Under the pieces are notes generated by a model. That model was not told the DNA's origin, made no database searches, and saw only the letters and a list, made by a program, of their open reading frames with translations. From an uncultured Candidatus Saccharibacteria bacterium (GTDB taxonomy: Bacteria; Patescibacteriota; Minisyncoccia; Phycocordibacterales; UBA2100): a stretch of 55,085 bases of DNA. Position 1 is the first letter of the stretch; each line of letters begins with the position of its first letter. Positions 9,000 through 38,797 of this stretch are shown piece by piece. Position numbers and translations under genes: made by a program. Location of the stretch: contig CAZZHR010000001.1 of the NCBI GenBank assembly GCA_964654205.1, positions 131,953 through 187,037 on the forward strand, read 5' to 3'.

Positions 9000-9683
9000 A
9001 TGCAAAAAGTCCTGACCTACACCATACTGCTCGTGGCGCTCGCGGGAGTGGCATTTCTTGTGTGGAGCTACGCGCCTCGGCTCGAAGAGCCGCAGGTCGC
9101 GACCTCGACCTCGACGGCGCTCGAGATGCGCATCGTTGAAGACAGCGAGGACACCGCCGAGTATTCGATAGACATCCGCTACCCGCAGTTTGGCGACGAG
9201 GTCGTGGACGATGCCGTGAAGCGTGTCGTCGACCAGGCGACAGCGGCGTTCAAACTCTACCCGGCAGAGCGACAGGAGGACTCGGCGATTCCAAAGAACG
9301 AGCAGTCTATTACATTCAACAGTGTCTACACGGGGAGCGATTACGTGAGCGTCGAGCTCATGATTGCCGAATACACCGGCGGCGCGCACCCCAATTCCAT
9401 TCTCATTGGGGTCAATGTGAACAGGTCGACGGGTAAAGAAGTCTCGCTCGATGAAGCACTCACGCTCATAGGAAAAGACCTCGCATCGGTCGCGGCGCAG
9501 ACGAGAGCGGAGCTGAGTGCCAAACTCGGAGACGCGTTTTTCCCCGAAGGCGCGGTCGCATTGTCAGACAACTACGCGACATTCCTCATCGGGAGGGAGG
9601 AAGTTACATTCATTTTCAACAACTACCAAGTCGCGCCGTATGCGGCGGGACCCCAGCAGATTTCGTTCGAACGGGTGAAGTAG
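9000..9683 (+). CDS. DUF3298/DUF4163 (RsiV-like) membrane-anchored protein
   Basis: N-terminal TM helix plus YTGGAHP, the DUF3298 signature. The ATG at 9000 lies 6 nt after TGgTAGTCT. Confidence 0.65.
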   Translation: MQKVLTYTILLVALAGVAFLVWSYAPRLEEPQVATSTSTALEMRIVEDSEDTAEYSIDIRYPQFGDEVVDDAVKRVVDQATAAFKLYPAERQEDSAIPKNEQSITFNSVYTGSDYVSVELMIAEYTGGAHPNSILIGVNVNRSTGKEVSLDEALTLIGKDLASVAAQTRAELSAKLGDAFFPEGAVALSDNYATFLIGREEVTFIFNNYQVAPYAAGPQQISFERVK

Positions 9684-9702
9684 CGGGGTATAATATGCCT
9701 AC

Positions 9703-10488
9703 ATGACGAGCGGTGCGCACGGCATTCGCAGACGCATCGGGGATGCACTGCACAACGAGCACTCGCGCTGGTTTTTCCTCGTCAACGACTCGATTGCAGT
9801 CCTCATCGTTGTTTCAGTCTGTCTCCTCATTTTTGAAAGTGTGCCGACTATCGGCGGCGTGTATGGGCAATTCTTCTGGAACGCAGAGCTTCTCATCCTC
9901 TGCTTTTTCTCGGCCGAGTACCTGCTTCGCTTGTGGACGGCGGAGAGACCGATTCGCTATGCGAGGAGTTTCTTCGGTGTCATAGACGCGGTCGCGATTC
10001 TGCCAGGCCTTCTCGCGGTCTTGCTCCCCGTGCTCTTCCCGTACCACACGCTCGGCGTGCTTCGCATTTTGCGGGTACTTCGTATTCTGCGTGCACTTCG
10101 ACTCGTGCGATTTGTGCTCCCGACGAAGCGCCGGCAGCAAATGGCGAAGGATATGGCGAGCGGCGTCGCACTATTCAACATAGAAATATTCCTGTTCGCG
10201 TTCGCATCGGTCGTTGTTATCGCAGGCGCGCTCATGTACGCGGTCGAAGGCGCAGTACCTGGCTCGGCTTTCGGCAGCATTCCTGACGGCATGTGGTGGG
10301 CGGTCGTGACTATGACTACGGTGGGATACGGCGACCTTGTGCCTGCGACGGCGCTCGGCAAACTCATCGCATCCGCGACGATGCTGTCTGGGCTCGTCTT
10401 TCTCGCGCTCCTCGTCGCTGTCATGGGCCGCGCCATGCAGACGGTGCTCTTCGGCTCGCCCATAGATTCGGGTAAGTCCGCGAACTAG
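9703..10488 (+). CDS. Voltage-gated-type potassium channel
   Basis: S4-like RILRVLRILRALRLVRF and the TVGYGD selectivity filter. TATAAT lies 8 nt upstream of the ATG. Confidence 0.85.
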   Translation: MTSGAHGIRRRIGDALHNEHSRWFFLVNDSIAVLIVVSVCLLIFESVPTIGGVYGQFFWNAELLILCFFSAEYLLRLWTAERPIRYARSFFGVIDAVAILPGLLAVLLPVLFPYHTLGVLRILRVLRILRALRLVRFVLPTKRRQQMAKDMASGVALFNIEIFLFAFASVVVIAGALMYAVEGAVPGSAFGSIPDGMWWAVVTMTTVGYGDLVPATALGKLIASATMLSGLVFLALLVAVMGRAMQTVLFGSPIDSGKSAN

Positions 10489-13308: not shown

Positions 13309-13376
13309 GGTAAATGGTTCCAAATCAAAATCTCCTGGCACTAAAATGCCTTGGAAAATAAAGAGAAAAATACGAG

Positions 13377-13775
13377 TGGAAGTGGCGGGAATCGAACCCG
13401 CGTCCAGAAAGAAGCTACATGTACTCTTCTACGATGCGTAGACTGCCTTGGTCCGCCGGCTGGCGGATTTAGGTAACACGCGTATGAGACAGACAGAATC
13501 GCGTGAGACCGAGCTCTATTCTTAGATACTCCTCGAGCGGGGAGTATCAGTACCCGAATTTGATGACGTCGACTGAATGCCTATCGGATTTCGAGATTCA
13601 GAGACGGCTGGTTAGGCGAAAGCGTAACCAGGCTGAAGGTCTTTCATCTGAATAGGTGAAAGAACTCCGAATGCGGTTTTGGTCGCACTTGAAGATTTGG
13701 AGCAGTTTGAAAAGATACTCCAGCTTTGCATCGCACGTACATGTGCCGATCTTCCTGTCGAAGCCGATCACTCCC
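13377..13775 (-). ncRNA. ssrA: tmRNA (SsrA)
   Basis: The 5' end is GGGAGUGAUCGGCUUCGAC. The 3' end is GGACGCGGGUUCGAUUCCCGCCACUUCC-A. The 7-bp acceptor includes G3-U70. It lies directly downstream of smpB. The candidate tag frame ends ...PGYAFA-UAA (stop at 13612-13614). CCA is not encoded. Confidence 0.85.
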
Positions 13776-20518: not shown

Positions 20519-20591
20519 CCGCCCGTAGCTCAATGGTTAGAGCACCGAGCTTATACCTCGGGGGTTCCTGGTTCGAGTCCAGGCGGGCGGA
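20519..20591 (+). tRNA. tRNA-Ile, anticodon UAU
   Basis: Hand-folded cloverleaf. Acceptor CCGCCCG/CGGGCGG, D stem GCTC/GAGC, anticodon stem CCGAG/CTCGG with loop C-T-TAT-A-C, T arm CCTGG-TTCGAGT-CCAGG, discriminator A. CCA is not encoded. Confidence 0.85.
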
Positions 20592-20597
20592 CTCACA

Positions 20598-31629: not shown

Positions 31630-31646
31630 ATCGCTTCAGTATACAC

Positions 31647-31878
31647 CTGCGGTGAATTATTAGCCCTTGTCCGAACCCACTTCGCACGCGCGGAGCGCGT
31701 GGTGGTTTGATACTTCCGCGTACGCTCCGATTGCGTGGGAACGCGCCCAACCGCGCTCGCAAGCTCGCGCGGGCAAACCCAAAAATGTCCTTTCAATTTT
31801 TTGCGGCTCCCCCCTGACCCCCCGCCGCAAGGCGGAAAAGAAAGAGGAAAGGACATTTTTGGTTTGCTGCGCCGCTTC
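31647..31878. repeat. IR1, left copy (232 bp, perfect inverted repeat of 34634-34865)
   Basis: Verified base by base. Also visible as identical 71-aa translations in ORFs 31667+ and 34845-. Confidence 0.95.
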
Positions 31879-32058
31879 AGAACTCCAAAAAGAGCATACT
31901 AATGATATCAAAATGGATTGCTCTTTTCTCCGTTCCTCGCGGCGCTTTGGGACGCTTTCAACTGCGGTTTGCGCTAACGCACAAGCAAAATCTTTATGTG
32001 CCTTGCCCCAACCCGCCCAGTGCGCGGCACACGCCCGCTTCGCGGGCGGCTCCCTTAC

Positions 32059-32379
32059 TTAGTCTTTCTTCGCATCCAATTTGAAGAAGAAAGTTGTCGC
32101 CAACAAAAAGATTCCGGTTATCAAATCAATCACGACCCAGGTGTCGCGGTCGAGATGGACTGGAAAGAAGGGATTGAAAAGTACAGCGACAAACCCGAAA
32201 ATCCAAACCCATTTTTCTTTTTGTCCCTCGTACGCCATCCACGCGACATATGCAGTCGTCGCGAACACGACAAAACGGAGAATGGTGAAAAATCCGTATT
32301 GCCAGCCGTCAAAGAGAGCGAGGAACAAAATCGTCGCCGCGACGACCAACGCAATATTTTTCTTATTGTTGTTGCTCAT
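32059..32379 (-). CDS. Small 3-4-TM membrane protein (DUF6804-like), last gene of the cargo operon
   Basis: WVWIFGFVAVLFNPFFPVHLDRDTWVVIDLI pattern. Followed by the hairpin CGCCCG-CTTCG-CGGGCG (plus strand, ~32029-32045). Confidence 0.5.
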   Translation of the reverse strand: MSNNNKKNIALVVAATILFLALFDGWQYGFFTILRFVVFATTAYVAWMAYEGQKEKWVWIFGFVAVLFNPFFPVHLDRDTWVVIDLITGIFLLATTFFFKLDAKKD

Positions 32380-33007
32380 AGGTACGTGATTCTTTTTTCA
32401 TTCGCATTTCTCCGATTATGGGAATGATGTTGAGAACTGTTCCACCAAGCAATCCGACGAGGAACAAAATAGAAACCCACGCTCCTTGTCCTGTAATAAG
32501 CATCAAAATAACACCGAGGACGAAACCGAGTTGACCACTGATGACCATAATCGCAGCGTTTTGGTTTCCCGCCTTTTTGTCTTCGTTCGCCAAAAATGCC
32601 CAAGGCGCAAAACTCACCGCATACGCAAAAAGCAGAACTGGAATAAAGTTTGCATATTCTGATAGTTGTACCGCAACACCAAAAACATACATGACTGAAA
32701 AATATACAATCGCTATTGTTACAATTTGATTGAGTAGGAGAAAAATAGACCCAAGTACATATTTTCGTTTTTCAAACAGCGCGGCTCCAGGGGCACCAAA
32801 AACAAGAGTAATCATCATCGCGAAACCCAAAATGTAGTGTCCGAAAATACTGTACAAAAATCCTGCTCCGACTGCCGAAAATAGACCATAAAACAGTAGC
32901 CAAATTCCACCAATCAAACCAGCAGTAAGATTCAGGATGGATATAAACGTCACCATCAACATGTGTGCGGCGACTATATATTCAAGTAAAGAATTTTTGT
33001 TCGTCAT
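32363..33007 (-). CDS. Polytopic (~6-TM) membrane protein, unknown function
   Basis: Hydrophobic helices run throughout. It overlaps the next gene by 17 nt. Confidence 0.5.
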   Translation of the reverse strand: MTNKNSLLEYIVAAHMLMVTFISILNLTAGLIGGIWLLFYGLFSAVGAGFLYSIFGHYILGFAMMITLVFGAPGAALFEKRKYVLGSIFLLLNQIVTIAIVYFSVMYVFGVAVQLSEYANFIPVLLFAYAVSFAPWAFLANEDKKAGNQNAAIMVISGQLGFVLGVILMLITGQGAWVSILFLVGLLGGTVLNIIPIIGEMRMKKESRTYEQQQ

Positions 33008-33010
33008 GTT

Positions 33011-33211
33011 TTAGAAATTACGTTGTAGCTGTATAGCCCTTTCCCAAGTCCAACAATTCAACCCAACAAAACGTCGTGCGATGCTATCTTCTTCAACTCC
33101 CGTTTTTGCACAACCGATGTCGATAACAGTTCGGGTAAAGTAAGTAAGCGAAAGTAGTGAAAAACCAATTACGGCGATAATCAGAATGTTTTTAAGAAAT
33201 TTATTTTGCAT
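33011..33211 (-). CDS. Small single-TM protein, unknown function
   Basis: 66-aa ORF with an N-terminal TM helix, packed 2-3 nt from its neighbours. Confidence 0.4.
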   Translation of the reverse strand: MQNKFLKNILIIAVIGFSLLSLTYFTRTVIDIGCAKTGVEEDSIARRFVGLNCWTWERAIQLQRNF

Positions 33212-33213
33212 AC

Positions 33214-33807
33214 TTATTCGTCAAACAGATTACCTACTTCGACAATATCAACACATGTTCCTGTTGCCGTGAAAAGGTTCGATGAATCAACCTCTATTTC
33301 GACATCATCTTCCGCATACGCAGTCCCCGTAAGAGCGAAAGCCGGTTTTGAAACCTCGTCTATATTTGCGACAACAGCAAACTCGTCAAAGTATTTTAGG
33401 AAGGAACGATCTTCGTCCGCTGGCTGTTTGATAAATTTATCTACAATTGAGCGGTCGCATTGAAGTTCTAAAACATAATCCACTGGACTAGAGTACGAAG
33501 ACATAAAGCGAATATATGTCTTACCGTTACGATTGAAAACGTCGTCAAGATACCCTTGGAACAGAACCGGCTTGTCGCTTACGAGCCGCTCCTGTGCCTG
33601 TATTGTGTAGACCAAATCATTTTCCCAGCCAGTTATTGCTCCGTACTGCTGCGCCAACTCGTTGGCACGCAGTTCTGTACTCGAAACTTCTTTTTGTTCT
33701 TCTTGTGTTGGAGAATACGAAGAATCATTGTTTGAGAAGAAAAAATGATAGCCGCCCCAAAGTGCTACTGCCGCAATAACTATCCAAAAGATATAATTTT
33801 TATTCAT
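33214..33807 (-). CDS. Membrane-anchored extracytoplasmic protein, unknown function
   Basis: N-terminal TM helix plus a ~165-aa soluble domain. No recognisable motif. Confidence 0.5.
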   Translation of the reverse strand: MNKNYIFWIVIAAVALWGGYHFFFSNNDSSYSPTQEEQKEVSSTELRANELAQQYGAITGWENDLVYTIQAQERLVSDKPVLFQGYLDDVFNRNGKTYIRFMSSYSSPVDYVLELQCDRSIVDKFIKQPADEDRSFLKYFDEFAVVANIDEVSKPAFALTGTAYAEDDVEIEVDSSNLFTATGTCVDIVEVGNLFDE

Positions 33808-33809
33808 AC

Positions 33810-34349
33810 TTATATTTCTCTAAAGCTAGAAATAAAGTTTGGATAACGATTTTCGCTCTCAAACTGATTAGTGATGTTGAATGTCCACTCGCCAACATCA
33901 ACAATTCGACCAATGATCGTTTCAGTATTCGGAGATGAATTACTGTACACGCCAGTTATTTCGTAATCTGTCGCGGGCGCGTTCGGGTCTTTTTCCATGC
34001 GAGATACAACGCCACCATAGATTTTTGCTGTCTGATTTATAAAATCTTCTTGGCTACTGTTGTAAGCGTAGAGATTATTTTCCGCTTGGACGAATAGCCC
34101 AACGCGCCCGTCAGGAGAGTTGTCTATGTATGACCACGAGTGTCGCGTAAAGTCCGCGCCGTCTGTTCTGTTGAACTGTGGTTCGGCAGGAAAGGTAATT
34201 TCAAAATTCAAATTGGGGACACTCAACACATACTTATCGTTGGAACTCAAGGTATTTTCTGTGTTTGAATTATTGAAATTACCGAAAGCGAAAACCGATA
34301 CAATTCCGAGAATCACAACACTTGCGAGTACGATTTGATTTTTTGACAT
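33810..34349 (-). CDS. Membrane-anchored or secreted protein, unknown function
   Basis: N-terminal signal/TM segment plus a ~150-aa Asn/Ser-rich domain. Confidence 0.5.
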   Translation of the reverse strand: MSKNQIVLASVVILGIVSVFAFGNFNNSNTENTLSSNDKYVLSVPNLNFEITFPAEPQFNRTDGADFTRHSWSYIDNSPDGRVGLFVQAENNLYAYNSSQEDFINQTAKIYGGVVSRMEKDPNAPATDYEITGVYSNSSPNTETIIGRIVDVGEWTFNITNQFESENRYPNFISSFREI

Positions 34350-34353
34350 AAGA

Positions 34354-34572
34354 TTACTTTACAAAATAATCGAAAGGTTTTCCGTACACTTTCGCGAACT
34401 CCGCAAGCTCGACCGCATCCACGCCTCGCTCGCCACGTTCTATCTTAGAAATGTACGCCTGAGGTTTCTTCAACTTCTTGCCCGCCTCAACTTGCGTCAA
34501 ACCGGCATCGTGGCGAGCTTCACGCAGTTTCTTGACGAGATTTTGATACTTCGGCTGATATTTCTTAGACAT
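34354..34572 (-). CDS. XRE-family helix-turn-helix transcriptional regulator (72 aa)
   Basis: LREARHDAGLTQVEAGKKLKKPQAYISKIERGERGVDAVELAEFAKVYG is the classic Cro/CI-type HTH. The ORF-track N-terminal extension reads through IR1 and is rejected. Confidence 0.8.
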   Translation of the reverse strand: MSKKYQPKYQNLVKKLREARHDAGLTQVEAGKKLKKPQAYISKIERGERGVDAVELAEFAKVYGKPFDYFVK

Positions 34573-34573
34573 A

Positions 34574-34594
34574 ACTATACTAACACGGTATAGT
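34574..34594. promoter_or_regulatory. Candidate operator palindrome in the XRE/cargo-operon leader
   Basis: ACTATAC-N7-GTATAGT lies immediately upstream of the XRE ATG, downstream of an extended -10 TGgTATATT (minus strand, -10 at 34604-34609). Confidence 0.45.
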
Positions 34595-34633
34595 CGGTTG
34601 TGGAATATACCAGTTTGGTTTATTCTGTTTATG

Positions 34634-34865
34634 GAAGCGGCGCAGCAAACCAAAAATGTCCTTTCCTCTTTCTTTTCCGCCTTGCGGCGGGGGGTCAGGG
34701 GGGAGCCGCAAAAAATTGAAAGGACATTTTTGGGTTTGCCCGCGCGAGCTTGCGAGCGCGGTTGGGCGCGTTCCCACGCAATCGGAGCGTACGCGGAAGT
34801 ATCAAACCACCACGCGCTCCGCGCGTGCGAAGTGGGTTCGGACAAGGGCTAATAATTCACCGCAG
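34634..34865. repeat. IR1, right copy (232 bp)
   Basis: Perfect reverse complement of 31647-31878. Its last 6 nt (CCGCAG) are shared with IR2. Confidence 0.95.
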
Positions 34866-34990
34866 AACAGAACTTCAGATTTTGAAAGCCCTGCATGGCG
34901 CGGCAGCAAAGCTGCCGCGCTGGGGAGAAAACGCCGTCGCTCCGCGACGAATTGGAACGGGGCGGGCGCGCCGAAGCGCGCGGATTTGGC
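34860..34990. repeat. IR2, left copy (131 bp, perfect inverted repeat of 36409-36539)
   Basis: Verified base by base. Contains three GC hairpins, for example GCGCGGCAGC-AAA-GCTGCCGCGC at 34898-34920. Ends 26 nt before the recombinase ATG. Confidence 0.95.
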
Positions 34991-35016
34991 TCTTGTTTCG
35001 TATCTAAAACCAATCT

Positions 35017-36588
35017 ATGTCGTTCAAACCAAAATATTTTCTATACGCTCGCAAATCATCGGAAGACGATGATAGACAAGTGATGTCTATCGAAGCGCAA
35101 CTTTTTGAACTACGAGAATTGGCGCGTAAAGAAAAGCTTGAAATCCTAGCGGAGTTTCAAGAGTCGAAAAGCGCAAAGACGCCGGGGCGTGAGCAGTTTG
35201 CGGAAATGATGACGCGCATTGAAGCCGGAGAAGCAAACGGTATTTTGGCATGGCATCCTGACCGTCTTGCTCGCAATTCGATAGACGGCGGGCGCGTCAT
35301 TTATGCCGTTGATACTCGCAAGGTTTCGTCTTTGCGCTTTCCGACATTTTGGTTTGAACCGACCCCGCAAGGGCTCTTTATGTTGCAAGTGGCGTTCGGA
35401 CAATCCAAGTATTACAGCGATAATCTTTCCGACAATATCAAGCGCGGTGTCCGCCAGAAAGTGCGTCGCGGCGAGTGGCTGAACCTCGCTCCCTTTGGCT
35501 ATCAAAACAACCCTCGTATTCGCAATATCGAACCTCATCCAGTCAATTCAAAGATAGTGGTACGCGTATACGAGGAATACGCCAAAGGTTCGCATTCGTT
35601 CGTATCCCTCGCGCACTTTCTGGCGGACTTGGGCGTGGTGTCTCGCAACGGAACGCCACTTGCCAAAGTTTCCATCAAACGACTTCTGACTCATCGCGCA
35701 TATCTCGGCTTCGTGAAGCATGGCGACGAATGGTTTGATGGAAACTTTGAGCCAATCGTTTCTCCACAATTGTTTGAAGCCGTGCAAAAGGTGCTGAAAG
35801 AGAAGGAGCGGCCGCGCAAACGCAAAATCAAGCACGATTTTCCGTTTGTTGGTATTTTTCGATGCGGTGAGTGTGGTGGCATGATTTCCGCGCAGTGGGC
35901 AACAAACCGCTGGGGTACGAAGTATCGCTACTACCGATGCTCGAAAAAGCGCGGCCGTTGCTCTCAACCCTATGTGCGTGAAGAAGCGTTAGCGGAACAA
36001 TTACGAGCACGGCTTCAAACAATCTCGCTCCCCGAAAGATATACAGATTGGATGATGAACAAAGTGGACGAATGGGAAAAAGAAGCAGCTACTCTTTCGG
36101 GAAGCGAGGTGCAACACCTTTCACAATCAATCAAAGCGGACGAGGATCGCATGGAAAAGTTGGTTTCTACCTATTTGGATGGCGATGTGCCAAAAGAGTT
36201 GTACCTCAAAAAGAAAGACACCCTCATGCGCTCTCTCGCCGCTTTGCGACAAAAAGAGAAAGATGTTGCACGCGGAAGAAACGATTGGGTCGAACCCTTG
36301 CGGGAATGGATTTTAGATACGAAACAAGCCGCCTTTTTATCCTCATCCGACAATTTCTCCGAAATTGCCTCCTTCGTCAAAAAAGTCGGAACGAACCCTA
36401 CGGTTCGTGCCAAATCCGCGCGCTTCGGCGCGCCCGCCCCGTTCCAATTCGTCGCGGAGCGACGGCGTTTTCTCCCCAGCGCGGCAGCTTTGCTGCCGCG
36501 CCATGCAGGGCTTTCAAAATCTGAAGTTCTGTTCTGCGGAGAGGGAGGGATTCGAACCCTCGGAACGGTTTCCCGTTCAACACATTAG
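35017..36588 (+). CDS. Large serine recombinase (resolvase catalytic domain, recombinase domain, zinc ribbon, coiled coil)
   Basis: YARKSSEDD contains the catalytic Ser. ...GILAWHPDRLARN. CGECGG...YYRC is the zinc ribbon. The last ~60 codons are encoded by IR2 and by the antisense of tRNA-Ser. Confidence 0.9.
   Translation: MSFKPKYFLYARKSSEDDDRQVMSIEAQLFELRELARKEKLEILAEFQESKSAKTPGREQFAEMMTRIEAGEANGILAWHPDRLARNSIDGGRVIYAVDTRKVSSLRFPTFWFEPTPQGLFMLQVAFGQSKYYSDNLSDNIKRGVRQKVRRGEWLNLAPFGYQNNPRIRNIEPHPVNSKIVVRVYEEYAKGSHSFVSLAHFLADLGVVSRNGTPLAKVSIKRLLTHRAYLGFVKHGDEWFDGNFEPIVSPQLFEAVQKVLKEKERPRKRKIKHDFPFVGIFRCGECGGMISAQWATNRWGTKYRYYRCSKKRGRCSQPYVREEALAEQLRARLQTISLPERYTDWMMNKVDEWEKEAATLSGSEVQHLSQSIKADEDRMEKLVSTYLDGDVPKELYLKKKDTLMRSLAALRQKEKDVARGRNDWVEPLREWILDTKQAAFLSSSDNFSEIASFVKKVGTNPTVRAKSARFGAPAPFQFVAERRRFLPSAAALLPRHAGLSKSEVLFCGEGGIRTLGTVSRSTH
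36409..36539. repeat. IR2, right copy (131 bp)
   Basis: Perfect reverse complement of 34860-34990. It lies inside the 3' end of the recombinase ORF, and its outer CTGCGG overlaps the last 3 nt of tRNA-Ser. Confidence 0.95.
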
Positions 36589-36623
36589 CAGTGTGCTCCA
36601 TTCGACCGCTCTGGCACCTCTCC
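36537..36623 (-). tRNA. tRNA-Ser, anticodon GCU (class II, long variable arm)
   Basis: Hand-folded. Acceptor GGAGAGG/CCTCTCC, D stem CCA/TGG, anticodon stem GCACA/TGTGT with loop CT-GCT-AA, variable arm GAACGG-GAAA-CCGTTC, T arm GAGGG-TTCGAAT-CCCTC, discriminator G. CCA is not encoded. TATACT promoter lies upstream. Confidence 0.9.
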
Positions 36624-36737
36624 CCGGTCGCGCCAGTATACAGATTCCACGACGCCCTCGCTAGGGTGGGATATCTTTACTTGGCCCCTGCTACGTACGA
36701 TGATAAAATGGATTTGAGTGGAATCCATTTGCGCTGC

Positions 36738-38099
36738 ATGAATCACAGATTCACGTTCATCGATTTATACGCTGGCATAGGTGGCTTTAGAATTGCGCTG
36801 GAAAAACATGGTGGGAAATGTCTGGGATTTTCCGAAATCGACAAAGAGGCAGTCAGGGTCTACAAAAATAATTTCGTTCCCGAGGGTTCCGGGGAGGTGG
36901 AGTTTGGGGATGTCACCAAATTGAACAAGTTGCCCGAAGTCGATGTACTTGTCGGAGGCGTTCCGTGCCAGTCGTGGTCTGTTGCAGGCAAAATGCGGGG
37001 ATTCGACGATCCCAGAGGCCGACTCTGGATGGACACTATAAGACTGGTTGAGCTGAATTCACCCAAGGCATTCATATTTGAGAATGTAAAAGGCCTTATG
37101 GATCCGCGAAATAAGGCAAACCTTGATCTAATTCTCGAACGCTTTGCTGCGCTCAACTATGTCACACACCACACACTTCTCAACTCGTCCGATTTCGGTC
37201 TTCCCCAAAACAGAGACAGGATTTACATAGTCGGGATACGCGCGGATATAGCAACAGATACTGAATTCGCATTCCCAAATCCAGTTCCGAGCGAAAGTAG
37301 ACTACACCATTTTCTCGACAACGTGACCTCACTTGGCGCACCGAAACAGAAACTCAAGCCAGAGGAGTTGTTTGGCGGCAAGATTCCGATGGGACGCAAT
37401 AGGTATCAAAGAAATGATCAAATGAACGACTTCTTTATACTCTGTGATACGCGTGACGGGCACACGACCATACACTCGTGGGACATTATCGATACTACGC
37501 TAACGGAAAAGAAAGTATGTATGGCAATTCTTCGCAATCGTCGAAAGAAAATATACGGAACGCGAGACGGTAACCCAATCCCAGTGGAGAAACTCCGAGA
37601 ACTCGTTCCGGGCATGACGATGGGCGATATAGATTCCCTGGTGCAAAAGCGAATCTTGAGGGAAGTTACGCGTGACGCGTTCGAATTTGTGAACTCGAAG
37701 AATTCGTCGGGAATAGGGGGGGTCTACCGCATCTATCTCCCTGAATCGCAGATATTCTCCACACTAACCGCGACGGGCACGAGGGATGCGGTCGCAACCG
37801 AATCGGTGGTGGCAAAATCGCCCAGCGAGTTCAAGGCGCGATTCATAGAACATATCTATAAGCAGGGAAAGTACCGCCGGATTCACGCGCATGAGGCGGC
37901 GAGGCTTCAGGGATTTCCGGATGAATTCAAATTGCATGAAAAGCCACACATAGCTCACAAACAGTTCGGAAATGCGGTTTCTGTACCCGTAGTGTATAGT
38001 GTCATGCATTCGATTCTGAAAACGGGTGCTCTGGGATCGGTGCCGATATGGACGAACAACGGAAGAAGGAAATCATTGCAAAGGCCAAGGATTGGATGA
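36738..38099 (+). CDS. dcm: DNA (cytosine-5)-methyltransferase
   Basis: Motif I FIDLYAGIGG, IV GGVPCQSWS, VI ENVKGL, VIII QNRDRIYIVG, and IX/X RLQGFPDEF...QFGNAVSVPV. Start set at MNHRF, downstream of an extended -10 TGaTAAAAT. Confidence 0.92.
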   Translation: MNHRFTFIDLYAGIGGFRIALEKHGGKCLGFSEIDKEAVRVYKNNFVPEGSGEVEFGDVTKLNKLPEVDVLVGGVPCQSWSVAGKMRGFDDPRGRLWMDTIRLVELNSPKAFIFENVKGLMDPRNKANLDLILERFAALNYVTHHTLLNSSDFGLPQNRDRIYIVGIRADIATDTEFAFPNPVPSESRLHHFLDNVTSLGAPKQKLKPEELFGGKIPMGRNRYQRNDQMNDFFILCDTRDGHTTIHSWDIIDTTLTEKKVCMAILRNRRKKIYGTRDGNPIPVEKLRELVPGMTMGDIDSLVQKRILREVTRDAFEFVNSKNSSGIGGVYRIYLPESQIFSTLTATGTRDAVATESVVAKSPSEFKARFIEHIYKQGKYRRIHAHEAARLQGFPDEFKLHEKPHIAHKQFGNAVSVPVVYSVMHSILKTGALGSVPIWTNNGRRKSLQRPRIG

Positions 38100-38797
38100 A
38101 GTCCGGGCTAATCGCCAGTCATAAGAAAAATACACTCAAGCTGACCGATCTGAGCAGCTTCAATGTGAATCCGTTTCTTTTGCCTTACCTCGGCTACTAT
38201 TTCGAAGGAAACATAGAACCGATCACCTTGGCCAAGGTGCTCGTGTATCCGCGCGTATTGGGTACGTCGATTGCGACGTCTTTCGGCACACAAATGCAGC
38301 GCTTCATCAGCGTAGTCCTTGGAGGGTATGGATCTGTCGTCCCTGGCATGGATATTGAGTTTGAGGATAAAGTCGACGGTCGCAAAAAGTATGCGCAGGT
38401 GAAATCTGGTCCGAATTCCATCAATCGCGATGATGTGACGACTGTTCGGAATCATTTTCGTGCTGCCATCAACAGAGCGCGGACGAACAATATCCCAATT
38501 CAGCTCGATGACATGGTCTTCTGCCTGCTCTACGGCGAGCCTCATGAAAAGAACTCGTTTGTTAAAGAGCTTGAGCAGGACTACACAGTCATCATGGGCA
38601 GGGAATTTTGGCACCGGTTTACGGGTGACGAACGCTTCTATGAGCATCTCATCATAGCCATGGGTGAAGCAGCGATTGAGGTAAATATGAAGGATGTGGT
38701 CGATGAGGTAGTGAATAAATTAGCGCTCCAAATCGAAAAGGAATACACAGATTTGTATAGTGCATCGAAATCGCGCAAGAAAGAAGGGGGCTTATAG
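38048..38797 (+). CDS. Probable type II restriction endonuclease partner of the m5C methyltransferase
   Basis: It overlaps the MTase 3' end. An alternative ATG at 38096 forms an ATGA stop/start overlap. GMDIEFEDK...YAQVKSG is compatible with a PD-(D/E)XK core. Specificity cannot be read from the sequence. Confidence 0.55.
   Translation: MDEQRKKEIIAKAKDWMKSGLIASHKKNTLKLTDLSSFNVNPFLLPYLGYYFEGNIEPITLAKVLVYPRVLGTSIATSFGTQMQRFISVVLGGYGSVVPGMDIEFEDKVDGRKKYAQVKSGPNSINRDDVTTVRNHFRAAINRARTNNIPIQLDDMVFCLLYGEPHEKNSFVKELEQDYTVIMGREFWHRFTGDERFYEHLIIAMGEAAIEVNMKDVVDEVVNKLALQIEKEYTDLYSASKSRKKEGGL

Follow-up and report, generated by a model that had tools for sequence, protein, structure and literature searches.

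A large family of tRNA-targeting serine-recombinase elements in Patescibacteria keeps an inverted attachment-site copy beside the recombinase gene

We analysed a stretch of 55,085 nucleotides of contig CAZZHR010000001.1 (assembly GCA_964654205.1, positions 131,953 to 187,037) from an uncultured Candidatus Saccharibacteria bacterium, hereafter the window, in which a small element encoding a large serine recombinase (LSR) occupies the 3' end of a tRNA-Ser gene. This element belongs to a very large family of small integrative elements with cargo genes in Patescibacteria. Every member of the family keeps a complete inverted copy of the element attachment site (attP), here termed X, between the divergent genes of an XRE-family repressor and of the LSR; as a consequence, near-identical inverted repeats enclose the LSR gene on the one hand and the cargo on the other, and each boundary has a crossover core. 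The explanation that we consider best overall, and hold with moderate confidence, combines membership in this family, a common target-site logic, one fixed configuration of the segments and a role of X as a cis-acting site of the LSR.

An inverted-repeat search of the window returned two repeat pairs. IR1 joins positions 31647-31878 and 34634-34865 (232 nt, 100% complementary, with 2,755 nt between the arms), and IR2 joins 34857-34990 and 36409-36542 (134 nt at 99%, with 1,418 nt between the arms). The perfect part of IR2 covers 131 nt (34860-34990 and 36409-36539), as confirmed by self-BLAST. Perfect inverted repeats of such length cannot have originated by chance. We denote the arms of IR1 as a' (left end of the element) and a, and the arms of IR2 as b and b' (right end, at the tRNA); X is then a-core-b, an intact attP in inverted orientation. 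The two pairs abut at the hexamer CCGCAG (34860-34865), which was read from the sequence as CTGCGG at both outer ends (31647-31652 and 36534-36539). The length of the element closes as 1,418 + 2,755 + 2 x 357 = 4,887 bp, and the junction predicted for excision (b'+core+a') is the reverse complement of positions 34634-34990 at 357 of 357 positions. An earlier analysis made without database searches (the sequence-only reading) had proposed these two perfect repeats, the hexamer shared by all junctions and the same arithmetic, and each proved correct to the base; its assignment of a serine-recombinase element to the 3' end of tRNA-Ser is likewise corroborated by Pfam domains, ARAGORN and Rfam. 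The element is foreign in composition, with 37-45% GC in the cargo against 56-60% in the flanks, a drop of 12-20 points.

The recombinase contains PF00239 (aa 8-154, E = 5e-21), PF07508 (aa 176-262) and PF13408 (aa 276-329), all above the curated cut-offs, and carries a YARKSS motif at the N-terminus. It distantly matches the structures of SPbeta YokA/SprA (E = 1e-15). Compared with the NCBIfam equivalogs CcrA/B/C, XisF and SprA it scores far below the cut-offs (at best 87 bits for CcrB with a cut-off of 900, and 76 for XisF with a cut-off of 375), and forms a clade separate from these named subfamilies. The b' arm constitutes the last ~45 codons of the LSR gene, whose open reading frame continues through the attR core into the tRNA; the excised form would encode a 526-aa LSR with a different tail.

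Homologues of the LSR form more than 5,000 clusters at E<=1e-20. Among the matches listed, the 120 best have 68-89% identity, and those with a named source come nearly all from metagenome-assembled genomes of Patescibacteria. The family comprises at least 547 loci in species-representative genomes and at least 577 loci in metagenomes of the Joint Genome Institute (JGI), and 80 loci of each kind, referred to below by L numbers where needed, were compared, each also with itself. An inverted repeat of ~110-145 bp surrounds the LSR gene in 136 of the 160 loci (IR2 in 70 of 80 genome loci and 66 of 80 metagenome loci). In 42 loci (26 genome, 16 metagenome) it is abutted by an IR1-type repeat (60-330 bp) that brackets a cargo of 1-9 kb; most loci without a detected IR1 have too little upstream sequence. 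Of the 33 loci without a detectable IR1 partner, 24 have the a arm beside the internal core under a strict motif test and most others when inspected by eye, so that X is universal in the family. It is retained across LSRs diverged to 58-60% identity, and its attP-proximal ~60 bp is the most conserved non-coding sequence of the element.

The same layout is present in the complete chromosomes OY970382.1 (L032) and CP060229.1 (L033) and in contigs of 0.6-0.8 Mb (L024, L026, L104). This bears on the possibility that the long inverted repeats are chimeric joins made by assemblers, since many related contigs do break at these repeats and a few (L122, L102, L147) are possibly mis-joined through them. 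However, the architecture recurs in 136 independent loci, which differ in sequence and in tRNA and stem from many studies and assemblers, the closed chromosomes included, and the divergence of 1-10% between repeat arms rules out an origin from collapsed repeats. The artefact against which the sequence-only reading had cautioned is therefore effectively refuted, and the architecture that it described is real and conserved. In ~60 of the 160 loci the contigs stop 0-150 bp 5' of the recombinase start or inside the repeats, in line with real repeats that exceed assembler k-mers in length. The family thus fragments genome assemblies of the Candidate Phyla Radiation (CPR) in a systematic way, and may cause mis-orientations in them as well.

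No relatives were found in IMG/VR, and no LSR of INPHARED phages or PLSDB plasmids exceeded about 25% identity (<27%). Cargo scans and collection searches gave no capsid, terminase, relaxase or type IV secretion genes; the element is neither a phage, a plasmid nor a conjugative element.

The target-site logic emerged from the comparison of related loci. In 113 loci (61 of 61 genome and 52 of 52 metagenome loci) the LSR gene is followed at its 3' end by a tRNA gene on the opposite strand, with the tRNA 3' end facing the element. The targets include tRNA-Ser (four isoacceptors), Glu, Arg, Leu, Ala, Lys, Val, Gly, Met and Ile. The shared core follows the target, being CCGC(A) for Ser, TCAC(A) for Glu, GCAC(A) for Arg, Gly and Leu, and CCAC(A) for Ala, and the cores equivalent to those of the window match the target tRNA in 26+16 related loci. 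The core ranges from 4 to 9 bp, and the minimum of 4 bp consists of the first trailer base, the discriminator and the last two acceptor-stem bases. In the window, according to the tRNA coordinates, the hexamer covers the last 3-4 nt of tRNA-Ser (two acceptor-stem bases and the discriminator). The host flank at attL is not conserved.

Conserved motifs surround the core at different distances in the element and in the target. The b' consensus ...GAAGTTTC..TG precedes the discriminator in 50+ loci. The a' arm carries CCTTTGCGCGAACC, with CGAAC at +19 from the core in 71 of 89 loci, whereas CGAAC of the tRNA T-loop is found at +13 in 53 of 62 loci, an offset of 6 bp; in the window, the T-loop TTCGAACC of tRNA-Ser(GCU) has its CGAAC 13 nt from the core, as a B-type target half site. 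The zinc-ribbon-type motif of the LI integrase is located 5 bp further out in attP than in attB (PMC3783163), and Rutherford et al. described a displacement of the distal motif by about half a turn between attP and attB of serine integrases (PMC3783163). The family thus resembles LI in having its attP motif further out, by 6 bp instead of 5 bp, and from this offset a' and b' are attP half sites and the tRNA is the specific attB half site. Judged by sequence, the family has the three-domain enzyme, the short shared core and the attB motif shifted toward the centre that mark an LSR system.

Taken together, the alignments indicate that the LSR reads the T-arm and acceptor of the tRNA as a specific half site and needs no particular sequence opposite. 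They place strand exchange within a 4-bp core (G, discriminator complement, G, N) that is matched per element to the target tRNA. The attP is b'-core-a', and integration splits it into attL (flank-core-a') and attR (b'-core-tRNA). The junctions had previously been interpreted as an attL, an inverted attP and an attR, and this assignment is supported by the core that tracks the tRNA and by the distances of CGAAC (+19 vs +13); the element ends and the crossover region proposed for the window agree with the family comparison as well. Since most cores are non-palindromic, X is opposite in polarity to attL and attR.

We also considered an origin of this layout from two independent modules, both circular and both with a palindromic attP, of which one, the LSR cassette, would have had the b arms and the other, the cargo cassette, the a arms. 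This was rejected: in elements at tRNA-Glu, tRNA-Arg and tRNA-Ala the internal core exactly equals the end cores read as their reverse complement, so that conservative recombination of two modules cannot yield the layout. No insertion of the LSR cassette only was found among the examined loci. As in tRNA-targeting integrative islands, the tRNA is intact, the composition is foreign and the cargo is variable.

The mirror symmetry of the LSR gene extends beyond IR2. A block directly upstream of the start codon (34992-35014) mirrors a block within the recombinase gene (36306-36328), which lies 80 bp before b' and encodes ILDTKQA; IR2 is thus the perfect part of a longer, interrupted mirror. According to the family alignment, the two blocks co-vary between elements, the mirrored stretch being 17-23 nt long. 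Ordinary gene conversion would not account for this, as such blocks are too short and lie too isolated. Because of the 80-bp gap between the mirrored blocks, the sequence GGAACGAACC, which adjoins b', has no counterpart beside b. It shares CGAACC with the tRNA T-loop and with the a' motif, and may be an accessory recombinase-binding site. A conserved hairpin beside b' was considered as the source of asymmetry between the attP copies and dismissed, only GGAACGAACC and not its hairpin partner being universal.

The orientation of the segments is highly uniform. Of 114 informative loci, 113 have the LSR gene directed toward the tRNA, and the XRE gene adjoins X on the opposite strand in 52 of 57 elements, the remaining cargo following toward the flank. 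All large or closed contigs, including every XRE-carrying contig >170 kb, have this standard arrangement. From these counts we infer that the element exists in one fixed configuration and is not a free flip-flop, with the LSR gene converging on the tRNA and the XRE/cargo operon diverging from it. The exceptions are one locus with a flipped LSR gene (L122, 1/114) and five with a flipped cargo (L121, L140, L124, L123, L098; 5/57). All six are short-read metagenome contigs, in which the assembler may place a segment in either orientation if the inverted repeats around it exceed the k-mer length.

In L122 (positions 2478-2720), tRNA-Ser(UGA) is followed on the same strand by the core, the b arm and the recombinase start; here either the inversion is real or the assembly followed a chimeric path through the 131-bp repeat. 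The same element (99.95-100% identity) occurs in two metagenomes with the cargo in opposite orientations between 148-bp repeats (L124:1-2105 and L125:1-2205), and the break of both contigs falls on a G/C homopolymer within the repeat, which fits a real flip as well as assembler ambiguity. Arm variants of this pair were considered as a means to tell enzymatic from homologous inversion, but the sole difference is the length of the homopolymer. The six exceptions remain candidates for real inversion; they do not support an equilibrium of the 2-micron type. Terminal overlap, as a sign of a free circle, was seen in none of the 80 metagenome contigs tested, and the small high-abundance contigs P0069 and P0027, considered as free circles, turned out to be ordinary fragments.

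The LSR gene is the only gene conserved in all elements, and the XRE gene is present in 58 of 82 loci (~70%). The rest of the cargo is unrelated between elements and includes restriction-modification systems, AAA_15/OLD-type ATPases, surface proteins and various enzymes; the smallest cargos (1.1-1.7 kb) consist of one or two unrelated genes. No replication, partition or transfer genes were detected in 26 further listed cargos or among the ten largest scanned cargo proteins, profile scans of the window cargo gave no Rep, partition or origin-type gene, and no directionality-factor gene is conserved across the examined cargos. In contrast to the cargos, the module formed by X and the LSR gene (a-core-b-recombinase-b') has 92-94% nucleotide identity across many genomes, among them L004, L005, L006, L008, L010, L021 and L092-L100, at several tRNA-Ser isoacceptors. 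Near-identical modules with different cargos imply cargo turnover at the inner edges of the a arms, and this similarity points to a very recent spread with frequent cargo replacement.

The repeats themselves are partly homogenised and partly decaying. IR2 is 100% identical in 59 of 125 pairs and the rest form a continuous decay down to 77%, with 22% of the pairs below 98% identity. The mismatches have no wobble bias (47 G.U-compatible vs 67, plus 79 of the transversion type), hence RNA pairing is not under selection. An RNA panhandle or antisense pairing was accordingly discarded as the cause of repeat identity, as there is neither an excess of G.U-compatible changes nor a match to an Rfam family; Rfam gives only a sub-threshold chance match for the distal hairpin of a' (31775-31865). 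A protein-level explanation of b' was also discarded, as codon periodicity there is only weak. A terminator-like hairpin is located in the b' region at 36449-36465.

The divergences of IR1 and IR2 are uncorrelated (r = -0.02, n = 39), and several elements have one perfect repeat pair and another diverged by 3-10%, which points to independent gene conversion and/or module exchange. Gene conversion and exchange of modules between elements probably keep the repeats alike. Tandem arrays of two to four members beside one tRNA, with hybrid b1'-core-a2' junctions, were found in L001 (7567-17889), L009 (870-14400), L110 and L118. These are most simply read as new copies landing at the tRNA despite a resident downstream b' arm; in that case attR would still be a competent target.

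What, then, could be the role of the mirrored attP? We propose that X is a cis-acting, predicted LSR-binding site in the control region of the recombinase gene, which could serve as an operator or a decoy in the manner of res. Excision would give a circle with two inverted attPs. Recombination between X and attR could invert the LSR gene and would regenerate both sites, since identical half sites would be exchanged. The observed isomer would be the only one of four in which the LSR gene is spared read-through from the tRNA promoter or from the cargo operon, and for lack of such read-through it is proposed to be a self-locking end state. This three-part scheme, in which X is cis-regulatory, inversion proceeds between X and attR, and the observed isomer is a stable sink, is offered tentatively and is possible rather than probable.

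Several points weigh against our proposal. Excision, the circle and the binding of the LSR to X are all deduced from sequence. An operator needs ~50 bp, which does not explain the arms of 110-330 bp or the whole left a arm. Were X fully competent in the circle, half of the integrations should yield the isomer with both segments flipped. Self-locking requires inversion of the cargo by the LSR or by homologous recombination, and attL x attP is barred by the canonical LSR rules. The isomer with the flipped LSR gene (L122) is rarer than those with flipped cargo, the opposite of what is expected from X x attR only. A dual B-/P-type motif in the b arm, considered as an explanation and rejected, is present in only 18 of 92 loci. 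Finally, no empty site was recovered for the window locus.

Of the other explanations, the one closest to the sequence-only reading is an analogue of the yeast 2-micron/FLP flip-flop, in which the element would be a mobile 4.9-kb circle with two equivalent inverted attP units, inverted by the LSR or by homologous recombination and able to integrate through either unit. The geometry fits exactly, the cores lie at the outer ends of long repeats as in the cix sites of P1, and the six candidate isomers include the element seen with opposite cargo orientations in two samples and L121, where XRE is ~68 bp from the left arm and so mirrors the standard spacing. The bias toward one of the four isomers is nevertheless overwhelming (113/114 and 52/57), all large and closed assemblies are standard, and the exceptions are short-read contigs, of which L124, like its counterpart L125, breaks inside the repeat at a homopolymer. 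In addition, no examined cargo has a replication or partition gene, hence there is no copy-number amplification for such a flip-flop to serve, and attP x attP is not an allowed LSR pairing (PMC3783163). We therefore consider the flip-flop unlikely, and the functional analogy drawn earlier is not supported. Comparably doubtful is a recombinase-only toggle, in which inversion by X x attR, a pairing of the attP x attB type, would be reversible without a directionality factor; the LSR gene would be ON, and mobilise the element, by read-through from the tRNA promoter and OFF when converging on the tRNA and diverging from the repressor operon, and rearrangements would go on until the element is locked in the quiescent isomer seen in genomes. 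In such a toggle the internal site might also replace the directionality factor in excision.

X may, on the other hand, be a functionless relic, an ancestral inverted duplication of attP that was fixed in the founder and kept similar by gene conversion. The decay of the repeats in many copies (22% of IR2 pairs below 98%), the neutral appearance of the mismatches and the independent homogenisation of the two repeat pairs, as predicted for RecA-type conversion, are in line with this. A relic is hard to reconcile with the presence of X in essentially every member, at LSR identities down to 58-60% and in genomes under strong reduction, with an X core that tracks retargeting to new tRNAs, with the exceptional conservation of its attP-proximal ~60 bp and with the co-variation of the block 5' of the ATG with its coding partner; it seems to us as improbable as the two preceding schemes. 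Still less likely, and in our view very improbable, is a single-strand model, in which the element is transferred as single-stranded DNA (e.g. by natural transformation), a' pairs with a and b with b', X acts as a splint that rebuilds a duplex attP, and panhandle repair keeps the arms identical. It would account for high mobility without own transfer or replication genes, for the exact complementarity of X and the two ends, for the strong folding of X as a single strand (z = -4.7) and for the many copies with perfectly identical repeats. But serine recombinases cut duplex DNA, and a looped stem would lead to hairpin-capped chromosome ends that call for extra steps of replication and resolution; either strand could enter, which leaves the fixed orientation unexplained; the repeat mismatches lack a wobble bias; and there is no nickase or Rep gene.

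The sequence-only reading had also predicted an empty site, with tRNA-Ser followed directly by the promoter of the DUF5652 gene. It was not recovered: an exact junction search of the metagenome collection gave 0 matches, and the related loci are occupied or rearranged. This result does not refute the predicted excision and circle. The element ends consequently rest on the family comparison. We found no other record of the exact LSR protein of the window. The locus with the same DUF5652 protein (L083) is the same occupied site, and the closest orthologous locus (L087, 81% identity of the neighbour protein) is occupied too, with the a' arm adjoining DUF5652. In the more distant relatives L084 and L088-L091 tRNA-Ser(GCU) lies 55-65 bp from DUF5652 and points away from it; the contigs of L089-L091, three of one lineage, break at the tRNA 3' end and that of L088 within the tRNA, and L084 has tRNA 3' fragments in both orientations downstream of the tRNA (9593-9960). 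L086 has the orientation of the window with 1.6 kb between the tRNA and DUF5652, and a degenerate tRNA-3'-like remnant abuts the DUF5652 -10 box. BLAST of the flanks against unoccupied tRNAs among the loci gave nothing usable. To judge from these arrangements, the tRNA-Ser locus is evidently a rearrangement hot spot that was inverted and reused repeatedly.

In the combination of resolvase, recombinase and zinc-ribbon domains the enzyme is similar to those of phiC31, Bxb1, Listeria A118/LI and SPbeta SprA, and the family shares with canonical LSR elements a short attP/attB core and an integrase gene that adjoins attP. Unlike them, it targets the tRNA 3' end via one half site only, has its attP within the last codons of the integrase gene, and carries a second, inverted, full-length attP at the promoter end of the LSR gene. 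Its arms are kept identical over 110-330 bp and no directionality factor is conserved.

A likeness to the phage P1 C segment had been noted before. It stands as far as geometry is concerned: as in P1 C segment/Cin, Mu G/Gin, Hin and Pin, serine-recombinase crossover sites bound an inverted-repeat-flanked segment beside the recombinase gene, and the cix sites of P1 reportedly lie at the outer ends of 0.6-kb repeats (Hiestand-Nauer & Iida 1983). It fails with respect to a small Fis-dependent invertase, and mixed orientations may be represented by the short-read exceptions (1/114 and 5/57). Hin, Gin, Cin and Pin are invertases of ~190 aa with a C-terminal helix-turn-helix, depend on Fis and an enhancer and toggle tail-fibre or flagellin genes, whereas the LSR of the family has 523 aa and is of the integrase type. 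Moreover, the family has three alternating sites, of which the outer two are chromosome junctions, and an essentially fixed orientation. Similarly, the predicted excised circle would resemble the 2-micron circle in having two unique regions and inverted repeats, each with a recombinase target; in contrast, FLP is a tyrosine recombinase, and the 2-micron circle is a replicon with REP/STB and equimolar isomers, while the family has no replication function in the examined cargos, no observed circle and one dominant isomer.

The functional analogy that we favour is with Tn3 and gamma-delta. Their res site lies between the divergent tnpA and tnpR genes, and the resolvase also acts as a repressor. 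X likewise is a recombination site in the divergent promoter region of its own recombinase gene, being located in the window between a promoter-like site for XRE (34604-34631) and the LSR start codon; a putative autoregulation of the LSR through X is our best guess. The analogy has its limits, as res of Tn3 is a three-subsite site for cointegrate resolution that is not duplicated at the transposon ends, and the resolvase is a small serine recombinase. As the closest ecological analogue one may regard the tycheposons of Prochlorococcus, which are also small cargo elements at tRNA genes of streamlined genomes without classical transfer systems and form variable, stacking islands. Tycheposons differ in using tyrosine recombinases (474 of 501), in having direct partial-tRNA repeats and, in many cases, replication or PICI-like modules (PICI, phage-inducible chromosomal island) (bioRxiv 10.1101/2020.12.28.424599); no mirrored attP or inverted-repeat architecture is reported for them.

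In a full-text literature search, neither this CPR family nor any serine-integrase element that carries an inverted attP internally was found described, which is in agreement with the earlier remark that the architecture is not known to be described for a large serine recombinase; the family is apparently undescribed. The attL / inverted-attP / attR design has no counterpart among characterised serine integrases. The family is probably the dominant small mobile element of Patescibacteria and moves restriction-modification and other defence or accessory genes between their genomes, in which we know of no plasmids, few phages and no conjugation genes. It raises the question of how an element made of a recombinase and a repressor controls its integration, excision and spread with no genes for directionality, replication or transfer. 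As tools, these LSRs could be of value for the recognition of a universal tRNA T-arm half site combined with a programmable 4-bp core, and factor-free reversible inversion via the internal site, if true, would be a new tool principle for synthetic biology.

Table 1. Coordinates of the element and its target in the window (strand: + or -; a dot marks features listed without a strand).
Feature	Position	Strand	Remarks
Left junction core CTGCGG	31647..31652	.	outer end of IR1; attL = host flank + core + a' arm
IR1 left arm a', P-type half site	31647..31878	.	CCGAACC motif, CGAAC 19 nt after core; conserved hairpins
Unique segment U1 (cargo, 2,755 bp, 43% GC)	31879..34633	-	all genes on the minus strand
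DUF6804 protein gene	32059-32379	-	window cargo
Membrane/secreted proteins of 179, 197, 66 and 214 aa	within U1, after XRE	-	window cargo
XRE-family HTH (helix-turn-helix) repressor gene	34354-34572	-	first gene of cargo
Internal unit X, 357 bp	34634..34990	.	a arm 34634-34865 + core CCGCAG 34860-34865 + b arm 34860-34990
23-nt block directly 5' of recombinase ATG	34992..35014	.	mirrors coding block 36306-36328 (91%); consensus TTGTCTCTTGTTTCGTATCTAAA
Large serine recombinase (LSR) gene, 523 aa	35017..36588	+	Resolvase, Recombinase, Zn_ribbon_recom domains
GGAACGAACC inside recombinase gene	36388..36397	.	nucleotide-invariant, third codon positions included, in 55 related genes
IR2 right arm b' + core CTGCGG (36534-36539)	36409..36539	.	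attR = b' + core + tRNA
tRNA-Ser(GCU), intact	36536..36623	-	ARAGORN; Rfam 36537-36623, 55 bits

The surroundings of the element contain further features. On the 5' side of tRNA-Ser, positions 36690-38797 encode a C5 cytosine methyltransferase and an EcoO109I-like restriction endonuclease, with 46-50% GC against 56-60% in the host flanks. As L084 and L086 have other genes between tRNA-Ser and the ComF-like gene, this region is a second, independent variable island. The sequence CAGTATAC (TATACT on the coding strand) is found at 31636-31643, 6 nt 5' of the DUF5652 start codon, and again at 36633-36640, ~10 nt 5' of tRNA-Ser, and is conserved in relatives. In the source organism it probably serves as the -10 box of promoters that are leaderless or have a short leader. 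The window also contains a tmRNA gene (13376-13775) and a tRNA-Ile with the anticodon UAU (20519-20592), and tRNA-Ile(UAU) is present in several related loci too.

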